Source: an uncultured virus (IMG/VR IMGVR_UViG_3300037466_002145) (lineage: Duplodnaviria > Heunggongvirae > Uroviricota > Caudoviricetes). Taken from it: a stretch of 64,000 bases of DNA. Position 1 is the first letter of the stretch. The number at the start of each line of letters is the position of its first letter. The notes under the pieces were generated by a model that did no database searches, was not told the origin of the DNA, and was given only the letters and a program-made list of their open reading frames with translations. The translations under genes and the position numbers were made by a program. Location: the IMG/VR virus record IMGVR_UViG_3300037466_002145, positions 19,148 through 83,147 of that record; one strand, written 5' to 3'. Positions 5,320 to 28,660 of the stretch are shown in pieces.

Positions 5320-5625
5320 GGGTTTCCTCTTAGGTTAATTGAACAGAGGTATTTATCCAATGGCTGACGTTTCGAGACGGGAAGTGGCGGCAGAGTTAGA
5401 ACGCGTCATTCGACAGGTTCGGCGGCATCCGCGTTATTATAACGTTCTGATGCATATCCTTCATGAGGATGATCGCCAACTTGTCGAGCGCATCGGTTGG
5501 GAAGGGGCTGACTTCCTGATTGACGAAGGGCGGTGGTGTTTTCCCTTGACTTTCTTTTTTCAACGCCTTCGCATTGCCATGGAGATTACCCGCAGTCGGG
5601 TTGACGGAAAGCTTCCTGATATAAC

Positions 5626-6735
5626 CTACTTGACAAGGTAGTCTTTCGAGACGAAGCCAACCGAGGCGTCGCCGCGCATATGTTCTTTGACACGTACACG
5701 CCATTGCCCACAGGACGGGCACACCCAACGCCCGTCCTGGTCAGGGTAGAGCGGCCATTGGTGCTCGCAACCTTCGTGCTTGTTGAAGTTGCGGAAGTAC
5801 GCCTGCACCTCATGGCGGCGATGCTTGGAATGCTCGCGGAAGACGTTCAGAGCCCGCCGACGCGTCACTTCCTTTTTGATATCGACAAGGTGATACGCCG
5901 AATACGGACGGAACTTGCCCTTGTAATAGCCGCGCGCCGCGGGCACTGTCTCGATATCAATCAATCGCGGTTGGTTCAGCCAAAGCAAGCACATGAGGAT
6001 GTTGCGAACTTCACCAATCGAACCGTCCATCATTGCTTGTATGCTGTCTTCCACTCCATGTCGCATTTCGAAAACTTCTATTGCGGGAGCTTCGACGCAA
6101 ATTTGATTTAACATCAGAAAGTTGGCTTGTTCTTGAGTGAATTCAAATTTTGGATTGGTCATTGTTGACCCAAGCATTTGAGCAAGAGTCCGCCATTCGT
6201 CGGCATCTTGTCGAGGTGTTCCATCACCTTCTATAAATTTTTGAACTGGCGGTCCTTCATGGTTAGTGATGATGATTGGGCGAAGACCTTTAAGCGATAC
6301 GGATTCGTCGGTGCCTTCGAAATACATCTTGTAGACCATAGGTGACAGACTGATCTTACCATCCTCGGTCTCTACAAGAACGTGAATTGTGCGACCGACA
6401 ATAAGATAACCAGCTTGATTGTCGCGACTAAGGCCAGAGTAATACTTCTCTACCAGCAAAGAATTAGATCGCTGCCCAATTCGATTGAGAAAGGTGCCAA
6501 TGGGAAACTCAATATAAGTCACGTGATAGGGCGGCAAAGCGAATTGCAGATTATCAATAAAAATATTCGGATGGTCAACCATAAGGCCAGCCATCATGTC
6601 TGCAACTTGATCGGTAAAAACAAATTTGCGCGCGTCATACTTCTTTTCGACAAACGCCTTGTAAGCGGTCGGCATTAAGTCCTTATCGACGATGGACGGA
6701 CCCCACTTGTCCAAGAGGGTGCGCGGCGCGGTCAT
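5626..6735 (-). CDS. Conserved phage hypothetical protein with C-terminal H-x-V...CxxC...H-x-RG motif
   Basis: 369-aa ORF; RRHEVQAYFR...CPSCG...EHMRGD pattern. Confidence 0.7.
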   Translation of the reverse strand: MTAPRTLLDKWGPSIVDKDLMPTAYKAFVEKKYDARKFVFTDQVADMMAGLMVDHPNIFIDNLQFALPPYHVTYIEFPIGTFLNRIGQRSNSLLVEKYYSGLSRDNQAGYLIVGRTIHVLVETEDGKISLSPMVYKMYFEGTDESVSLKGLRPIIITNHEGPPVQKFIEGDGTPRQDADEWRTLAQMLGSTMTNPKFEFTQEQANFLMLNQICVEAPAIEVFEMRHGVEDSIQAMMDGSIGEVRNILMCLLWLNQPRLIDIETVPAARGYYKGKFRPYSAYHLVDIKKEVTRRRALNVFREHSKHRRHEVQAYFRNFNKHEGCEHQWPLYPDQDGRWVCPSCGQWRVRVKEHMRGDASVGFVSKDYLVK

Positions 6736-12793: not shown

Positions 12794-13623
12794 TACTTAC
12801 CTTTGCTTAGGTCGGTGACATTCGTGACATTACCAACAATCCAATGTTCGTAATCGCGAATGGCAGTCAAAACGTCGGCGCGGTCGTCTGCCGTCATGGT
12901 AGACAGAACCGTCTTAGCTTTGACTTTGGAGTGAGAGAGAATGTAGTTGAGATAGGTTCGCGGATTATAACCGTCCTTGGTCGGCGCGAACTTCTTGATG
13001 GCATTTTCAAGTGACAAATCTTTATAACCGAAGTCCGATTCAAAGAGGTAGGACTCCAGGGCTGCCATGCCGTCATCTTCGGATGCGAAGATAGCGAATG
13101 AACCATCGAAGCCGATGGCCTTATGCGTCTTGGCGAAGTTGTCGTAGAGAAGCTTGCCAGGGTTGTTATATCGCCATGATATTGAGCCACCAGTGCGGAC
13201 TTCAAAAGTGCCGTCTGGTTTCTTCATCGCGAAATAATACTTTTTGATCTTTTCGATGGTTGGGAAGACGGGAATCTTCGCTTCAAGGGTCGCGGCTTTG
13301 GCCTGTGCCGCTTGTGCGGTTTGCGTTGCCGTCTTGACCTGTTCGGTCAGAACCTGCGTCTGTGAAATACTCGATTGCAGTTGTGGGGCGATCTTCTTGG
13401 TCGTCGTGACCGTCGCGGCCTGATAGGCAAGGAACCCCGAGAACAATGCCGTAACGAAGATATGGCCGAGTGATTTCCACATCGGTTGAATTTCGACTGT
13501 CTTGGTTTCGACAGGGATCGGCGGCGGGTTTTCACTAATTTTCGGTGTTTCAACAGTTGCTGAAACAGGCGTATCTACTGAAACAGGTTGAACAGTAGTA
13601 TCAATAATTCTTTTTTCAGCCAT
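12793..13623 (-). CDS. Membrane-anchored lysozyme-like (WRYNNPG family) protein, paralog of 12170-12793
   Basis: TM segment (HIFVTALFSGFLAY), coiled coil, then SWRYNNPGKL...FAIF..EDDG...KKFAP..DG.NP..Y. Confidence 0.7.
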   Translation of the reverse strand: MAEKRIIDTTVQPVSVDTPVSATVETPKISENPPPIPVETKTVEIQPMWKSLGHIFVTALFSGFLAYQAATVTTTKKIAPQLQSSISQTQVLTEQVKTATQTAQAAQAKAATLEAKIPVFPTIEKIKKYYFAMKKPDGTFEVRTGGSISWRYNNPGKLLYDNFAKTHKAIGFDGSFAIFASEDDGMAALESYLFESDFGYKDLSLENAIKKFAPTKDGYNPRTYLNYILSHSKVKAKTVLSTMTADDRADVLTAIRDYEHWIVGNVTNVTDLSKGK

Positions 13624-13655
13624 TGCTTATACCCAATTTGTGAGGAAATACGTCC

Positions 13656-13662
13656 TATTTAG
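13656..13662 (-). promoter_or_regulatory. Putative T4-type late promoter CTAAATA
   Basis: CTAAATA about 35 nt upstream of the 13623 gene; the same motif recurs upstream of other genes (e.g. near 26757, 32190, 35434, 40363, 63264). Confidence 0.5.
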
Positions 13663-13667
13663 TAAAA

Positions 13668-14023
13668 TGCCTGCCTTCTGTTTCCAGGTGGCAGGCGACC
13701 CATGAAGCTTACGCCGCGAGGCGGATATCTTCGATAACGCTATTATCGTTTGCGTTTATACGTTTTCTTCGCGTTAACCCAGCTTAGATCGGGTACTGTC
13801 TTCTTCTCTTTTAACGTCATTCGATCCTATTTCGCGCCCATAAAGAAACACACTAACGAGTCCTACTTTGTCCAACCGCGAAGATGGTCATATCCTAACT
13901 CGCTTCTGGTATACCCTTCATCTAGTGTGAAGGCCCATGCGGTCCAATAGTAGTGTGTTTTTTGGTGGACGCGTCGGCTTTGCAGCCGAGTCATGTCCGT
14001 ATTATTACAAAAGCGTCATACAG
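13668..14023 (-). ncRNA. ssrA: Two-piece (circularly permuted) tmRNA, alphaproteobacterial type; tag ANDNSVIEDIRLAA*
   Basis: Acceptor piece ends ...CGCGTCCACCA (13963); coding piece starts GGGCGCGAAATAGGATCGA (13839) giving G3:U70; tag reading frame 13753-13709; 3' ACCTGGAAACAGAA hairpin. Confidence 0.92.
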
Positions 14024-14309
14024 TAATTACTTCTGCCTCTTTAGTTGAGACAATTCCTTACCCATTTCTTTGATCTTCTCATTCAGCATGGCGATTTTTT
14101 GATCCTTACGCGCGAGTTCGCCGTTAATGCCGCCCATGATGTGATACAAAGTGTATATCTTTGGCACCTTCAATTCACCTCCGATGATTTCACGTAGAAC
14201 GTGAGTCTCACCAGTTTTATGAAAGTCAGTTACCAATTCAGCCGCCAAGTCCATTAGGGCTTGAGGCTTGCCATACTTATACAATGGATCAATTTTTATC
14301 ATGGTGATT

Positions 14310-24228: not shown

Positions 24229-25683
24229 TTAGGCAGTCACACCTTCAATGCTATAGCGCTTGTCATTGAGGGTTTCCAACATGACGTTGTATGGAGAGAA
24301 CGTCTCCAGCTTGTTGGATAAAATGGACTTGAAGATAGCAGGCGAGAAGCCCGATACCATCGCAGTGCCATTTTGGTCTTCCTTGACGGGACTGTTGTCA
24401 GCCCGTCCGTTCACATGCCAGAACACAACCTTTGGCAGATCGTATCCATGCGCCGCGAACTTGGATTTCGCGTTGTTATAGGCCAAGTCAGACAATCCAG
24501 CGCGTTGCGGATTGAATTCCATGTCCGACACAACAAGGATCATGTTTGGCAAGTCGGCTTGCGGAACATTGTAGCGAATCGCGTGGTTCAACACGAGGTC
24601 GAACGTCGCTTCGATATTCGTTCCGCCGTAGGCGTCGGCAAAGTCCAACTGTTGGTACATGTTGGATAGGGTCAACGGCCCATTGAGCTTGTTCATGCGC
24701 GGAACATTTGAGAACCCAACCCACATACCTGCGAAGTCGCCCGTTTGCTTACCAGCGGTATACAAACCGATTGACACAGAGATATCCATCGGCGTCACGT
24801 TGCCTGGAACCGCATTGCGTTGGCCGTAGTAGCTCCATGATCCCATCGAGCTTGACAAGTCAATGAACGGCAGAATCTTGTTGTCGCCAAGCAAGTTCGG
24901 CAGCGCTTCCCATTGCGCGTCGGCAACCTTTCGATCACCGTGGTTCAGGGACTTCAGCACGTCGTAAGGGAACACCGCGCCCGCATTGATCTTGCGCTCG
25001 GCCTTACCCGTTTCAGGATTGATCTTCACCAAGCCATCACGATAAGCCTTGTACCCTTCGGGGTCGTGCTTGAAGAATGCCTTTTGATAACGTGCTGCGG
25101 CGACCGATGGCACGTGATCGTAGGTGATGCCCTTCCATTCGCGGGCGCACATTGGCGTTTCGACAACCTTCGTTAAAGTAACGAGGGTCTTGCGATAACG
25201 CTTGGGCGACCAGCCCAGGTAATTGCGGAGTGCCACGGCGTCCTTGCCCTTGCGAGGCATCCACTTGGCGCATAGGCCATTCTTGGCGTTCAGCGCGGCG
25301 GCAATGACCTTAAATGCTTGGTTGCGGGCGAAGTCGGTTTCGAAAACCAACAGGTCATCCCAACGGCCATACTCGGCCCAATATGGAAGGATCGCGACAA
25401 GGTCATCCTGATAGTTCTTTTCCATATGGCGAAGAATCTTGCGCGCAACTTCACGTTCGCCAGCGCCACCGCGGATATCGCGGGTCCACAACAGGGTGCG
25501 GATGGCGAGTCTCTTGTCTTCGGCGGTTGCCAAATCAAACTCTTTCGAGAGGTCCGCACCGCGTTGGCCCACAGCCTTGAATAGGTTCAGAACTCGCGAA
25601 CCTGAATCAGCATAGGTCACGGCACCATTGAAGGTAAGGCCCATGCTTGGCTTATTGGAAACTGAATTGACAAACTTGTTCAT
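24229..25683 (-). CDS. DUF2828-like TROVE/Ro60-related helical protein with C-terminal vWA domain
   Basis: RDIRGGAGER, YGRWDDL, AKWMPR, YRKTL, VETPMC..EW..I.Y..VPS.A..RY.KAF..HD, INAGAVFPYDV; vWA MIDAS DLSSSM, GGTN, SDMEF, VFWHV, SGFSP; AAGGAG RBS before the ATG at 25683. Confidence 0.85.
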   Translation of the reverse strand: MNKFVNSVSNKPSMGLTFNGAVTYADSGSRVLNLFKAVGQRGADLSKEFDLATAEDKRLAIRTLLWTRDIRGGAGEREVARKILRHMEKNYQDDLVAILPYWAEYGRWDDLLVFETDFARNQAFKVIAAALNAKNGLCAKWMPRKGKDAVALRNYLGWSPKRYRKTLVTLTKVVETPMCAREWKGITYDHVPSVAAARYQKAFFKHDPEGYKAYRDGLVKINPETGKAERKINAGAVFPYDVLKSLNHGDRKVADAQWEALPNLLGDNKILPFIDLSSSMGSWSYYGQRNAVPGNVTPMDISVSIGLYTAGKQTGDFAGMWVGFSNVPRMNKLNGPLTLSNMYQQLDFADAYGGTNIEATFDLVLNHAIRYNVPQADLPNMILVVSDMEFNPQRAGLSDLAYNNAKSKFAAHGYDLPKVVFWHVNGRADNSPVKEDQNGTAMVSGFSPAIFKSILSNKLETFSPYNVMLETLNDKRYSIEGVTA

Positions 25684-25704
25684 TGTTATCACTCCTTTTT
25701 GTTA

Positions 25705-25766
25705 CAGAATTATTGCAGGCCAGTCGTGCCTGCGTGTCAGTGACGATTTTAAGCTGAAATAATTCT
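25705..25766 (-). ncRNA. CAGC-stem unit 1 (in the 5' leader of the DUF2828 gene)
   Basis: AGAATTA-TTTCAGC...TAATTCT-G; internal GCAGGC/GCCTGC hairpin. Confidence 0.7.
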
Positions 25767-25770
25767 CTTA

Positions 25771-25863
25771 CTGACTAATAATATGCCCCCAACGGGCCAT
25801 TCCCTATAAAGGCGGGGAATGTTGGATTCGAACCAACTGTTTTTTGTGTGCTGAAATTAGTCG
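25771..25863 (-). ncRNA. CAGC-stem unit 2, YrlA-like topology (T arm, loop-closed acceptor stem, D arm)
   Basis: CGACTAA-TTTCAGCA..GTTGG TTCGAAT CCAAC, ATTCCC/GGGAAT, GCCC-GTTGG-GGGC, TTAGTCA-G. Confidence 0.75.
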
Positions 25864-25870
25864 AAATTGA

Positions 25871-25987
25871 CAGATTTGCTTTTTTAAGGGTTGGAATCGA
25901 ACCAACTACACTTCGCTTTGAATGCGAATGCTCAACCAAATGAGCTTCCCGTCCAGATGGACGATATTTGTTTGCTGAAACAAATCT
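25871..25987 (-). ncRNA. CAGC-stem unit 3 enclosing tRNA D, anticodon (TCA) and T arms with no acceptor end
   Basis: AGATTTG-TTTCAGCAA..GCTC/GAGC, TTCGC-AT TCA AA-GCGAA, GTTGG TTCGATT CCAAC..CAAATCT-G. Confidence 0.75.
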
Positions 25988-26004
25988 TAATCTGAAAAAT
26001 TTAG

Positions 26005-26109
26005 CAGGCTTACTTTGATCCAGGCTCGCGCCTGTTTCGGGATCGAACCGAATAACCAACTGAGTTGCCTCAGTAAGTATCTACCAGATTGTTTTGCTGC
26101 AATAAGCCT
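26005..26109 (-). ncRNA. CAGC-stem unit 4 with T-arm-containing module
   Basis: AGGCTTA-TTGCAGCAA..ACTGAG GCAA CTCAGT, TTCGG TTCGATC CCGAA, CAGGC GCGA GCCTG..TAAGCCT-G. Confidence 0.75.
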
Positions 26110-26120
26110 ATAATTAGTGG

Positions 26121-26268
26121 CGGAATAGCAGTGCTGGCACTTGAGTTTTTTTGAGTACGCCCAGGGTCAATGCTGAAACACCCTTCGTCGTAAGAACTTA
26201 CCCGAAGGTTTTGTCTTACATCGTTTTACAAATGCCCTTGCGGGCGGTTTGGCTGCGGTATCTATTCC
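26121..26268 (-). ncRNA. CAGC-stem unit 5, with nested mini-unit at 26162-26184
   Basis: GGAATAG-ATACCGCAGC...CTATTCC-G; nested AGGGT-GTTTCAGCATTG-ACCCT-G. Confidence 0.6.
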
Positions 26269-26283
26269 AGTATTCGTGTATGT

Positions 26284-26374
26284 CAGAATGATTATCTACT
26301 TCGGGATTAATGTGGCGAAATCGAAGCCCACTTCTCTATACCAGAAAGTTTTATTTGGTTGCTGAAATCATTCT
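26284..26374 (-). ncRNA. CAGC-stem unit 6
   Basis: AGAATGA-TTTCAGCAA...TCATTCT-G; internal GGCTTCGATTTCGCC T-loop-like element. Confidence 0.75.
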
Positions 26375-26383
26375 TGTATTCAG

Positions 26384-26722
26384 TTAGTGATGTTCGTCGC
26401 GATGTTCATCGGCCCATTCCTTGGCCGCAGCGTTACGAACAGATTTAGGAAACATCTTAGACCAGTGCTGATCCTTTGATCCAAACTCCTTGTGGTAAGC
26501 TTGGGCTGCACGGTCGGCATGATATCCCCAAAGCTTGATGGCTTTTTCGTGATTGTACACGCCTTTGGCATGTTTCTTCAAAAGGTTCTTTTCAATCGGA
26601 ACTTTCGAAGAATGATACAAGTGAGAATCGTTATCAGCAAAGATGCGGAGTTCTCTTACATCGGTGTGATTTACATCACCATCCTCTTTTTCAAGAAGGA
26701 TTTTTCTTAGGGATTTGGACAT
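26384..26722 (-). CDS. Hypothetical basic/His-rich protein
   Basis: 112-aa ORF; CTAAATA late-promoter-like motif upstream. Confidence 0.65.
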   Translation of the reverse strand: MSKSLRKILLEKEDGDVNHTDVRELRIFADNDSHLYHSSKVPIEKNLLKKHAKGVYNHEKAIKLWGYHADRAAQAYHKEFGSKDQHWSKMFPKSVRNAAAKEWADEHRDEHH

Positions 26723-27924: not shown

Positions 27925-28210
27925 CAGGATCATCTTTATAAGTGTGCTACCCTTACACCAAGAGCCCATCAGAGATACATAAAAGCTGGCACCTGTATCA
28001 GAACCAATTAAGGCACACTTCTTAGCACACGAAGTCTAAGCACATGCCACTACCCAACTACGAGTAGCTATCTGACCACCGAAAACCTTGCCAGTCGGCG
28101 TAGGTAGTTATCCTACTTGGCTTTCGCAGTTATGTATCTTTGGTGGACTCCCCCCGAATCGAACGTGGACCACTGCTTTGATAGAGCAAATTAGTTGCTG
28201 AACTGATCCT
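27925..28210 (-). ncRNA. CAGC-stem unit 7: permuted tRNA-like shell with CCA, G3:U70 and a 173-nt insert
   Basis: AGGATCA-GTTCAGCAA..T arm CCACG TTCGATT CGGGG, GGAGTCC-A-CCA, insert 28140-27968, GGGCTCT-TG, D arm GTGT AAGGGTA GCAC..TGATCCT-G. Confidence 0.75.
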
Positions 28211-28246
28211 TGATCGTTTTCATTCAAGGATATTTGGAGTATTTAC

Positions 28247-28317
28247 CTGAATAGCTTTTACAGATCGATTAAAGGTCGATTGCTGGAATACCAGCGTTTA
28301 TTTGCTGAAACTATTCA
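28247..28317 (-). ncRNA. CAGC-stem unit 8
   Basis: TGAATAG-TTTCAGCAA..GCTGG/CCAGC..CTATTCA-G. Confidence 0.75.
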
Positions 28318-28401
28318 AACTAGGTTCAATACCACGCCTGCAATCTTACGAGTAGCAGCATCCCTCCGCGAAGGGACGTTCTCCGTATGGTATTGAAATA
28401 G

Positions 28402-28471
28402 TGGAGCCAAGTGAGGGATTTTCACCCCCGTCATCACTCATGGTGATGTTTTAGGTCAAAACTAACTCGGC
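28402..28471 (-). ncRNA. Atypical tRNA-like element with CCA
   Basis: GCCGAGT/ACTTGGC-T-CCA acceptor; T-loop TGAAAAT; no canonical anticodon loop. Confidence 0.5.
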
Positions 28472-28477
28472 AAGAGG

Positions 28478-28574
28478 TGGAGTCGGGGGAAGGATTTGCG
28501 CCTTCAACTCTTGATGTTTGGGAGGCGGCGAGGCGTCCAAAAAATCAATACTCTAATATTTGAGTTACCCCGAC
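28478..28574 (-). ncRNA. Atypical tRNA-like element with elongated anticodon arm and CCA
   Basis: GTCGGGG/CCCCGAC-T-CCA; ACTC/GAGT D stem; TTGAT/ATCAA stem enclosing 28 nt; T-loop CGCAAAT. Confidence 0.55.
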
Positions 28575-28588
28575 ATAAAGGGAGTTAT

Positions 28589-28648
28589 CAGATTGGCTTT
28601 TGCTTTTTTTCTCCAAAAGAAAAGGCAATTGTTTGCTGCAACCAATCT
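28589..28648 (-). ncRNA. CAGC-stem unit 9
   Basis: AGATTGG-TTGCAGCAA...CCAATCT-G. Confidence 0.7.
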
Positions 28649-28660
28649 TTCAATTTTTGT

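Follow-up and report, generated by a model that had tools for sequence, protein, structure and literature searches.

Organization of the locus

The window examined here is a stretch of 64,000 nucleotides (nt) from an uncultured virus of the class Caudoviricetes (IMG/VR record IMGVR_UViG_3300037466_002145), which carries on its minus strand a gene for a 484-residue protein with the Pfam domains DUF2828 and DUF7788 and, in the 700-nt gap upstream of that gene (25684-26383), a row of small structured units. The second-last of these units, flagged in an original prediction as a tRNA mimic of the YrlA Y RNA type, sits 90 nt upstream of that gene, with which it shares the strand. The gene product does not match Pfam TROVE; its predicted fold is Ro60-like. 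Since all 20 tRNA genes called in the window by ARAGORN, as well as a permuted two-piece tmRNA (13618-14054; Rfam tmRNA_permuted, 93.1 bits; ARAGORN tag ANDNSVIEDIRLAA), lie on the minus strand, the flagged unit is to be read on that strand, where its parts and the neighboring gene are as follows:

24229 to 25683, minus: gene for the 484-residue DUF2828+DUF7788 protein, with a Ro60-like predicted fold (HEAT-type ring and von Willebrand factor A, or vWA, domain with MIDAS, or metal-ion-dependent adhesion site, residues)
25768 to 25866, minus: flagged unit, a putative short-form Y-like RNA and tRNA-elbow mimic; full match to the covariance model R1 (below), same helices in the minimum-free-energy (MFE) fold
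25856 to 25862, minus: closing helix, 5′ strand GACUAAU, partner of 25773-25779
25848 to 25855, minus: conserved 5′ motif UUCAGCAC, candidate protein-binding motif (family consensus UWCMGCAA)
between UUCAGCAC and the T arm, minus: A-rich linker
25821 to 25837, minus: T arm, GUUGG-UUCGAAU-CCAAC
25799 to 25820, minus: acceptor-like hairpin, AUUCCC (25820-25815) and GGGAAU (25804-25799), loop CGCCUUUAUA
25798, minus: single G between the acceptor-like hairpin and the D arm
25785 to 25797, minus: D arm, GCCC-GUUGG-GGGC
between the D arm and the closing helix, minus: AUAUU
25773 to 25779, minus: closing helix, 3′ strand AUUAGUC, then AGUAA (family consensus GAYA/GUWA)

From one end of the 7-base-pair (bp) closing helix to the other, the core of the unit spans 25773-25862 on the minus strand. 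The acceptor-like hairpin abuts the T arm directly with no spacer, and a 10-nt loop, which begins with GCCU, joins its two paired strands. The MFE structure computed by RNAfold for 25765-25870 of the minus strand (-25.3 kcal/mol) consists of exactly the closing, T, acceptor-like and D helices, and the succession of a T arm, a loop-closed acceptor-like stem and a D arm with GG, as originally proposed, agrees base for base with both the sequence and this fold. The further proposal that a CAGC stem takes the place of the anticodon arm holds only in part: a helix does stand there, but it is GACUAAU/AUUAGUC, and CAGC is predicted to be single-stranded, just 3′ of the first strand of that helix. Nucleotides typical of tRNA are found in the T loop (UUCGAAU, with its G-C closing pair) and the D loop (GG), with a junction of 1 nt instead of UA and a D loop of 5 nt, each of them shorter than its counterpart in tRNA or in long-form units. 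The cloverleaf, anticodon arm and open acceptor end that define a tRNA are absent, neither ARAGORN nor the Rfam tRNA model reports a tRNA at 25771-25863, and no Rfam family matches the unit at the gathering threshold or at E≤10.

An RNA family tied to DUF2828 genes

For comparison we retrieved 160 loci of DUF2828 homologs. A descriptor specifying a T arm, a closed stem and a D arm gave many plus-strand matches upstream of the gene in these loci, with short closing loops, and a common scaffold could be read from them: in 5′ to 3′ order, a helix strand of the type uaaAGRWYnnn, the motif UWCMGCAA, a linker, the module, an A-rich linker, the returning strand nnnRWYCU and GAYA. The motif consensus derives from a logo of 316 distinct contexts. 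On the gene's strand, CAGCAA occurs at 1.3-2.2 per kb beside the gene against a background of about 0.3; its density over the 600 nt ahead of the gene and some 400 nt behind it is 4-7 times that found elsewhere, and on the opposite strand it is rare.

From 19 units of 15 loci we built the covariance model R1, deliberately excluding the window and its close relative L008, and omitting two units with doubtful closing helices (L011 597-704 and L131 1341-1436). When R1 was run on both strands of the window, the flagged unit was the best match, over the full length of the model (positions 1-128), at 51.6 bits and E 2.2e-8, the E-values of R1 resting on a short calibration. The genuine tRNAs of the window reach at most 22.5 bits and are not set in the scaffold, whereas the corresponding unit of L008 scores 52.7 bits. 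All features of the family are found in the flagged unit, namely an AGRWY-type helix, UWCMGCAA within 1-3 nt of its 5′ strand, an A-rich 3′ linker, a GAYA/GUWA tail and the gene's strand; its helix GACUAAU/AUUAGUC is a compensated variant of the consensus helix.

Across the 160 loci R1 gave 153 matches at E≤0.01, distributed over 82 loci and all on the strand of the gene. Upstream of the gene lie 101 of them (median distance 257 nt) and downstream 52, 46 of the latter within 600 nt, with none inside the gene and a peak a few hundred nt to either side of it. Units of at least 45 bits occur in 11 distinct loci outside the training set; three of the 153 matches are partial and resemble genuine tRNAs. 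The RNA family is tied by position and strand to DUF2828 genes. In Ochrobactrum phage OC (41.5% protein identity), where the gap upstream of the gene measures 80 nt, R1 found no match at E≤1, and a blastn search of the array against 50,697 phage records returned none.

Among named phages, PF11443 was confirmed in all five with DUF2828 and in none of the five compared without it. The mycobacteriophage Whirlwind has a single R1 match in 76 kb, at 71.5 bits and 100 nt downstream of its DUF2828 gene; in Escherichia phage bumzen, a Felixounavirus whose gp1 is a DUF2828+DUF7788 protein, a unit of 62.3 bits (L168, 2588-2719) fills a stretch of the tRNA cluster that carries no annotation, flanked by tRNA-Asp and tRNA-Lys and lying 1 kb downstream of the gene. 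Phage KVP40 gave matches of 49.2 bits and lower at 6-12 kb from the gene, Listeria phage LP-066 one of 34.3 bits at 4 kb, and Campylobacter phage F356 one of 27.4 bits, 18 nt before the start codon. LP-066 (L171) also carries an RtcB-type RNA ligase gene (5357-6518) 1.3 kb downstream of its DUF2828 gene, an annotated "tRNA-OTHER" 1.6 kb upstream and an unannotated gap of 400 nt before the gene. In phage T5, which has many tRNAs and no DUF2828, R1 found nothing, and in T4 (L178) the sole match, at 72321-72437 and 39.2 bits, is a tRNA-Leu/tRNA-Gly junction, a false positive of the dimeric-tRNA kind; the T4 stable RNAs rnaC and rnaD are not matched. Scores near 40 bits, the practical noise level set by T4, need inspection; no tRNA is present at the flagged unit, which reaches 51.6 bits.

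Conservation and covariation of the fold

The short form of the unit, with stems that have changed but still pair, recurs in L008, whose DUF2828 protein is 82% identical, and in L088 and L009 (56-57%). In L002 (82%, same contig as L008) only a unit of the flagged type and one in the 5′ untranslated region (5′ UTR) are kept upstream of the gene; relative to the window, one T-stem pair has changed from U-A to U-G and the acceptor-like stem has gained one pair. When the 19 training units were aligned with MAFFT, RNAalifold predicted the closing helix, the T stem and the acceptor-like stem, with compensatory changes at 15 of 17 pairs; the D stem was not predicted from this alignment.

A larger alignment, A3, comprises 39 units of at least 47 bits from 26 sources and was made by alignment, and hence fitting, to R1. 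In A3 94.2% of cells are paired, compared with 64.0% after shuffling (none of 500 shuffles reached the observed value) and 38-48% when partners were slid, and cells with changes on both sides number 256 against 68.5. Two-sided changes affect 21 of 23 pairs and are spread over all four helices (closing helix 6/7, T stem 4/5, acceptor-like stem 7/7, D stem 4/4). A T loop of the form UUCRANY and, as aligned, GG in the D loop are each present in 37 of the 39 units. The fold is conserved with covariation, both in L008, L088 and L009 and in the 39 aligned units; failure of homologous units to conserve it had been named beforehand as grounds for abandoning the prediction.

What lies between the two arms varies. 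In 14 of the 39 units, NCCA follows directly on a 7-nt acceptor strand, with a linker of 2-16 nt thereafter, whereas 7 of 39 have almost no acceptor stem, their T arm passing into the D arm through only 3-6 nt; in others the stem is capped by GNRA or UUCG tetraloops. The NCCA-bearing and nearly stemless units suggest descent from tandem or permuted tRNAs, with processing by RNase P and CCA addition possible in a subset. The short form, of about 90-100 nt, with a junction of 0-1 nt, a short D loop and no anticodon-stem-like helix, is common to the flagged unit, L008, L088, L067b and L085b. In these alignments the conserved core is the T/D elbow, which favors elbow display over aminoacylation. 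In L088 (1563-1690) the 5′ part of the unit, made up of the scaffold strand, the motif and the T arm, occurs twice, forming a long, near-perfect inverted repeat tipped by the T arm; plant microRNA precursor models in Rfam match it spuriously and below threshold.

A predicted Ro60-like fold for the neighboring protein

The likely start codon of the DUF2828 gene is the ATG at 25683; a ribosome-binding site, AAGGAG, lies ahead of it at 25697-25692. Pfam matches its product with DUF7788 (1.1e-33) and DUF2828 (3.9e-22) and nothing else at E≤0.01, and the protein also matches PHROG 850, "RNA-binding protein". By tblastn, relatives are present in 709 phage records, which include Felixounavirus, KVP40-like, Listeria, Staphylococcus and Campylobacter phages and mycobacteriophages; most are annotated only as "hypothetical" or "RNA-binding protein", others as vWFA, "Ro-like RNA binding protein" or "putative Ro sixty-related".

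An AlphaFold model computed from 31 sequences (mean predicted local distance difference test 76.9, predicted template modeling score 0.72) has the architecture of Ro60/TROVE proteins, in which a predicted helical-repeat ring is followed by a vWA domain, and the MIDAS-type residues D275, S277, S279, T355 and D387 are invariant. When the model was compared with the PDB by Foldseek, the 13 best matches were all Ro60, headed by that of phage phiLo (9kop, E 8.8e-8) and followed by those of Xenopus, human and Deinococcus. The kinship of the DUF2828 protein to Ro60 rests on this predicted fold, which, together with the conserved fold of the homologous units, supports the earlier view that the array is Y-RNA-like.

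Relation to YrlA RNAs

YrlA is a Y RNA in which T-like and D-like stem-loops flank a stem-loop standing for the acceptor stem, the arms being enclosed by a stem formed from the 5′ and 3′ parts of the RNA, with GNCGAAN0-1G, a putative Rsr-binding site, near the 5′ end (Chen et al. 2014, PMC4201824). The YrlA RNAs reported there come from 254 bacteria and 22 phages and lie no more than 4 kb from a TROVE gene, sharing its strand; TROVE-annotated genes are carried by all of the 22 phages listed (PMC4201824, Table S2). The arrangement of the flagged unit, in which a helix formed by the flanks encloses the T arm, the closed acceptor-like stem and the D arm in that order, is the one that Chen et al. 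give for YrlA. Further likenesses are the position on the same strand beside a gene for a protein with a Ro60-like, if only predicted, fold, often with several units in tandem, the A-rich 3′ strand before the closing helix and, in some members only, NCCA after the acceptor strand as in YrlA of Mycobacterium smegmatis. The two differ in that GNCGAAN0-1G is replaced by UWCMGCAA beside an AGRWY helix, a difference in the putative protein-binding motif that had been pointed out from the outset, in that the partner gene belongs to Pfam DUF2828+DUF7788 rather than TROVE, and in the reduced form of the flagged unit, with its 1-nt junction, 5-nt D loop and lack of an anticodon-stem-like helix.

A search with the Rfam YrlA model (RF02553), suggested with the original prediction as a check, was negative for the flagged unit even at E≤10, and on the whole 83-kb virus record the model matches only the T arms of genuine tRNAs. 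The gathering threshold of RF02553 is 69 bits. It is likewise unmet by the three published YrlA RNAs of phage CcrColossus (42.3, 30.5 and 29.9 bits) and is therefore strict for phage members. On the module of T arm, acceptor-like stem and D arm in long-form units the model gives 41.9 bits in L037 (model positions 24-84) and 40.1 bits in L067, below the threshold yet as good a match as that to the published CcrColossus RNAs. Conversely, R1 recovers the YrlA of phage G at its published coordinates and over its full length (50.9 bits), as well as the module of one CcrColossus YrlA (55.8 bits); the Bxz1 YrlA was not found by R1. CcrColossus gp139 is a true Pfam TROVE protein, and the tRNA-like modules of CcrColossus and L037 are nearly identical, with flanks CAACCAGUGGGUC and AACCGGCA(A/U)UAAAAA. 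The stem-side motifs are unlike, being of the CGA(A/C) type beside TROVE genes and C(A/C)GCAA beside DUF2828 genes. On the strength of the cross-matches between RF02553 and R1 and of this shared module, the DUF2828-linked RNAs are best regarded as a divergent phage branch of the YrlA kind, and the flagged unit, as judged by its sequence, as a short-form member.

Other units of the window and their presence in RNA libraries

The gap upstream of the DUF2828 gene, and a second region further upstream, hold the following additional units:

25706 to 25766, minus: 5′ UTR unit, 9-bp helix AGAAUUAUU/AAUAAUUCU, motif UCAGCUU; helix retained in the MFE fold, z -2.7
25868 to 25990, minus: neighboring unit, the same scaffold around a cloverleaf; R1 38.3 bits, E 1.2e-5; MFE z -3.5
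26002 to 26112, minus: unit of the same scaffold, holding a T arm plus a pair of tetraloop hairpins; R1 32.7 bits, E 1.8e-4; MFE z -2.9
26281 to 26377, minus: first unit of the array, the same scaffold with a degenerate T-arm-like hairpin; R1 27.4 bits, E 0.0023; MFE z only -1.05
28588 to 28654, minus: second-array unit, helix AGAUUGG/CCAAUCU, motif UGCAGCAAAC
28245 to 28320, minus: second-array unit, R1 24.9 bits
27925 to 28213, minus: second-array unit of about 290 nt, helix AGGAUCA/UGAUCCU; T-arm-like hairpin close to the 5′ end, D-arm-like hairpin immediately ahead of the 3′ strand

The 3′ strand of the 5′ UTR unit ends 8 nt before the ribosome-binding site of the DUF2828 gene; R1 does not report this unit in the window at E≤10. 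In the neighboring unit at 25868-25990, which the Rfam tRNA model matches at 38 bits over model positions 6-65 only, there is a full D arm, together with an anticodon-like arm whose loop reads AUUCAAA and with a T arm; a loop caps the 7-bp acceptor stem, and entry and exit of the chain both fall within the 3′ strand of that stem, GGACGGG pairing with CC plus the upstream CGUCC. A capped cloverleaf of the same type and with the same AUUCAAA loop is found in L088 (1785-1891), with the compensated stem UUUGC/GCAAA versus UUCGC/GCGAA. The second array (27925-28660, minus strand) lies 2.2-3 kb upstream of the DUF2828 gene and shares the scaffold; R1 gave two further matches in the window near 28.1-28.3 kb. 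A loose scan of the window for the helix and motif carried no information, yielding 111 minus-strand and 102 plus-strand candidates, and served only to read the helix coordinates of units already found. A scan for consensus promoters gave 6 sites versus 6.5 in shuffled sequence, and no convincing terminator was found on the minus strand between the array and the DUF2828 gene.

The stretch is present in six DNA runs, and parts of it in 17 runs filed as metatranscriptomes. Across four of the RNA runs, three contigs match it at 100% identity: one (X7) covers 25730-26001 and with it the entire flagged unit, a second (X8) 25868-26183 and a third (X9) 25608-25758, bridging the 5′ UTR unit and the gene start, while the region 26184-26488 is uncovered by contigs of these four runs, which is uninformative either way. 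The stretch is present in RNA libraries, which falls short of proof of transcription, and contigs cannot reveal RNA ends. X8 stops at 25868, which is where the unit 25868-25990 has its 3′ end; X7 stops at 26001, a single base away from the 3′ end of the unit 26002-26112. These coincidences in different RNA libraries are only a weak hint of processing between units.

A proposed Y-type RNA partner of the DUF2828 protein

We propose, with a probability of roughly 0.7, that the flagged unit acts as a Y-type RNA: the Ro60-like ring of the DUF2828 protein would be bound by its constant stem, and its tRNA elbow mimic would recruit or decoy a factor that reads the elbow. In this model, a tandem array of small noncoding RNAs would be expressed from the minus strand, either jointly with the DUF2828 gene or immediately before it, and, we infer, processed into single units, each consisting of a constant scaffold (the AGRWY closing helix, the single-stranded UWCMGCAA and the A-rich 3′ strand) and a variable module. 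The module of the flagged unit would be an elbow mimic in YrlA order, with the GG of the D loop placed for docking on the T loop. By analogy with Ro60 and Y RNAs, the scaffold would bind the neighboring ring protein, of which the flagged unit is probably a partner, and would leave the tRNA-like module exposed, so as to tether or decoy an elbow-recognizing factor, candidates being RNase P, the CCA-adding enzyme, tRNA-modifying enzymes, an exoribonuclease, RNA-repair enzymes or a host defense nuclease. The 5′ UTR unit may add autoregulation. From function the model draws only indirect support, in that a Ro60-like protein of a Felixounavirus, Bas63 gp130, is reported to counter the Ppl defense (preprint 10.1101/2024.10.10.617714).

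Several observations weigh against this model. On the RNA side, RF02553 does not match the flagged unit, GNCGAAN0-1G is absent from it (its 5′ part reads GACUAAUUUCAGCACAC), and its tRNA-like tertiary contacts are less certain than those of the long-form units, given the 1-nt junction in place of UA and the 5-nt D loop. Its fold energy is only modestly better than chance (z -2.1 for 25765-25870, with 5 of 200 shuffles folding equally well) and constitutes modest evidence when taken alone. The training units of R1 were chosen with a descriptor and a helix finder that required the stems, so that their pairing is partly a product of selection, a concern that extends to A3 through its fitting to R1; 78 of the 160 loci, many with short flanks, gave no R1 match. 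Adjacency to the gene is not strict, as whole jumbo-phage records contain further units 16-54 kb away, always on the gene's strand; of five large virus records, the best R1 match stands beside the DUF2828 gene in four and 54 kb away in one. On the protein side, Pfam TROVE (PF05731) does not match the 484-residue protein, a profile search of PDB sequences gave no Ro60 match at E≤10, and hhalign against the CcrColossus TROVE protein yields a weak probability of 19%. RNA-library contigs may, moreover, contain DNA. Finally, Bas63 gp130, a Ro60-like protein of a Felixounavirus that counters the Ppl defense, did so when expressed alone with T7 (preprint 10.1101/2024.10.10.617714), and at least this activity may be independent of the RNA.

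A more extended reading, which we put forward as tentative and somewhat less likely to be right than wrong, is that DUF2828 proteins form a second, mainly phage-borne branch of Ro60 with a Y-RNA code of its own (the AGRWY helix and UWCMGCAA, not GNCGAA). Arrays of cassette RNAs would accompany their genes, each RNA presenting, on one constant protein-binding scaffold, a tRNA-derived module that can be exchanged, such as an elbow mimic (with an acceptor stem or lacking one), an NCCA-bearing permuted half or a capped cloverleaf, and the ribonucleoprotein would act on tRNA-directed or other host defenses, as the Ppl phenotype of Bas63 gp130 hints.

Among the alternatives, the one that survives best, while still unlikely, is that the scaffold is a general processing or stabilizing cassette for phage small RNAs, read by a ribonuclease or another phage factor and linked to DUF2828 only through clusters of tRNAs and small RNAs. 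The units at 16-54 kb in jumbo phages, the placement of the bumzen unit within a tRNA cluster and the second array of the window are all in keeping with such a cassette, as are, weakly, the two RNA-library contig ends at the unit borders 25868 and 26001. It accounts poorly for the peak of matches within a few hundred nt of the gene, the proximity of 46 of the 52 downstream ones and the lone Whirlwind match 100 nt from the gene. T5 has no match and T4 only the tRNA-dimer artifact, the window's genuine tRNAs lie outside the scaffold, and the same architecture is found beside TROVE Ro60 genes in phages G and CcrColossus.

A little less probable again is that the units are cis-acting leader elements of the DUF2828 mRNA, serving autoregulation by the protein or tRNA-related sensing. 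The last unit (25706-25766) is placed just ahead of the ribosome-binding site, and in many loci, with the gene at about position 2001, a minimal hairpin unit directly precedes the start codon (L027 1920-1962, L028 1917-1978, L011 1923-1982, L165 1920-1975); the lack of a convincing terminator and the contig spanning 25608-25758 point the same way. A leader role is at odds with the 52 of 153 matches that lie downstream of the gene and with others kilobases off, and the flagged unit is closed by its own helix, with another unit between it and the gene. Autoregulation through the 5′ UTR unit is compatible with the Y-type model and does not replace it.

We consider it very improbable that the unit is a split or permuted tRNA-like gene, cut by RNase P in the acceptor loop and trimmed at its 3′ end to CCA to give a chargeable two-piece molecule resembling two-piece tmRNA. 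YrlA of M. smegmatis is indeed cut by RNase P and gains CCA (PMC4201824), the same phage encodes a permuted tmRNA, and NCCA follows the 7-nt 3′ acceptor strand in 14 of 39 units; the flagged unit, however, has GCCU rather than GCCA, a stem of 6 bp and no anticodon arm, and with 7 of 39 relatives almost devoid of an acceptor stem and others capped by GNRA or UUCG, the common core is the T/D elbow, not a chargeable end. Decay of tandem tRNA genes into a functionless remnant, with the T arm of one and the D arm of the next, is already disfavored and hardly credible: the window is rich in tRNA genes and dimeric tRNAs can mimic the pattern, as in T4 and as Chen et al. warn (PMC4201824), yet here both acceptor strands pair across a 10-nt loop, relatives at 82%, 57% and 56% protein identity keep the unit with compensatory changes, covariation reaches the closing helix and all matches lie on the gene's strand.

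Significance

In the literature, "DUF2828" was mentioned only in papers concerned with neither phages nor RNA, and our searches on YrlA and phage tRNA-like RNAs, on Ro60, TROVE and Y RNA in phages and on Ro-like vWA proteins returned no description of a DUF2828-linked RNA family. The pairing of an RNA array with a Ro60-like gene recurs in many phages and, for the DUF2828 family, seems undescribed. Ro60 and its Y RNAs form a well-studied RNA-surveillance system, for which Y RNAs were sought only beside TROVE-annotated genes (22 phages, PMC4201824). A conserved, covarying RNA partner family would give a named function to a large domain of unknown function and a defined RNA to the Ro60-like anti-defense protein of Bas63; it would also offer a natural series of tRNA-elbow mimics showing which parts of tRNA matter, and correct the annotation of phage tRNA clusters, in which such units are missed or called odd tRNAs.

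Comparison with known systems

With canonical tRNA and two-piece permuted tmRNA, the flagged unit shares a T arm with UUCGAAU and a G-C closing pair, the GG of the D loop and the stacking of an acceptor-type helix on that T arm, and with the permuted tmRNA also the circular permutation of the acceptor strands; it differs from both in having no anticodon arm, free CCA end or coding part. All that a jumbo-phage survey mentions in the relevant passage are ROT/TROVE proteins, joined in a subset of the phages by a tRNA-like partner. In the Thermus phage phiLo, the Y RNA-like Yrl1 and Yrl2 accompany a Ro60 (PMC12135203; PDB 9KOP, 9L5Y) and were selected for a CGAA motif together with a stem-bulge-stem fold; a term search of the text did not find "tRNA-like". 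The phiLo Ro60 is of the TROVE type, with only 13-15% identity to the DUF2828 model. A further parallel is Bas63, where the Ro60-like gp130 is encoded directly upstream of a tRNA cluster, a position held in bumzen by the DUF2828+DUF7788 gene, and gp130 is presumably a DUF2828 ortholog, judging from genus and gene order. The authors of the Bas63 preprint guess that some annotated tRNAs are Y RNAs (10.1101/2024.10.10.617714); whereas the available part of that preprint defines no RNA, the 62.3-bit unit located here in an unannotated gap of the bumzen tRNA cluster (2588-2719) is, on the basis of its sequence, a concrete candidate for the Y RNA that they envisage.

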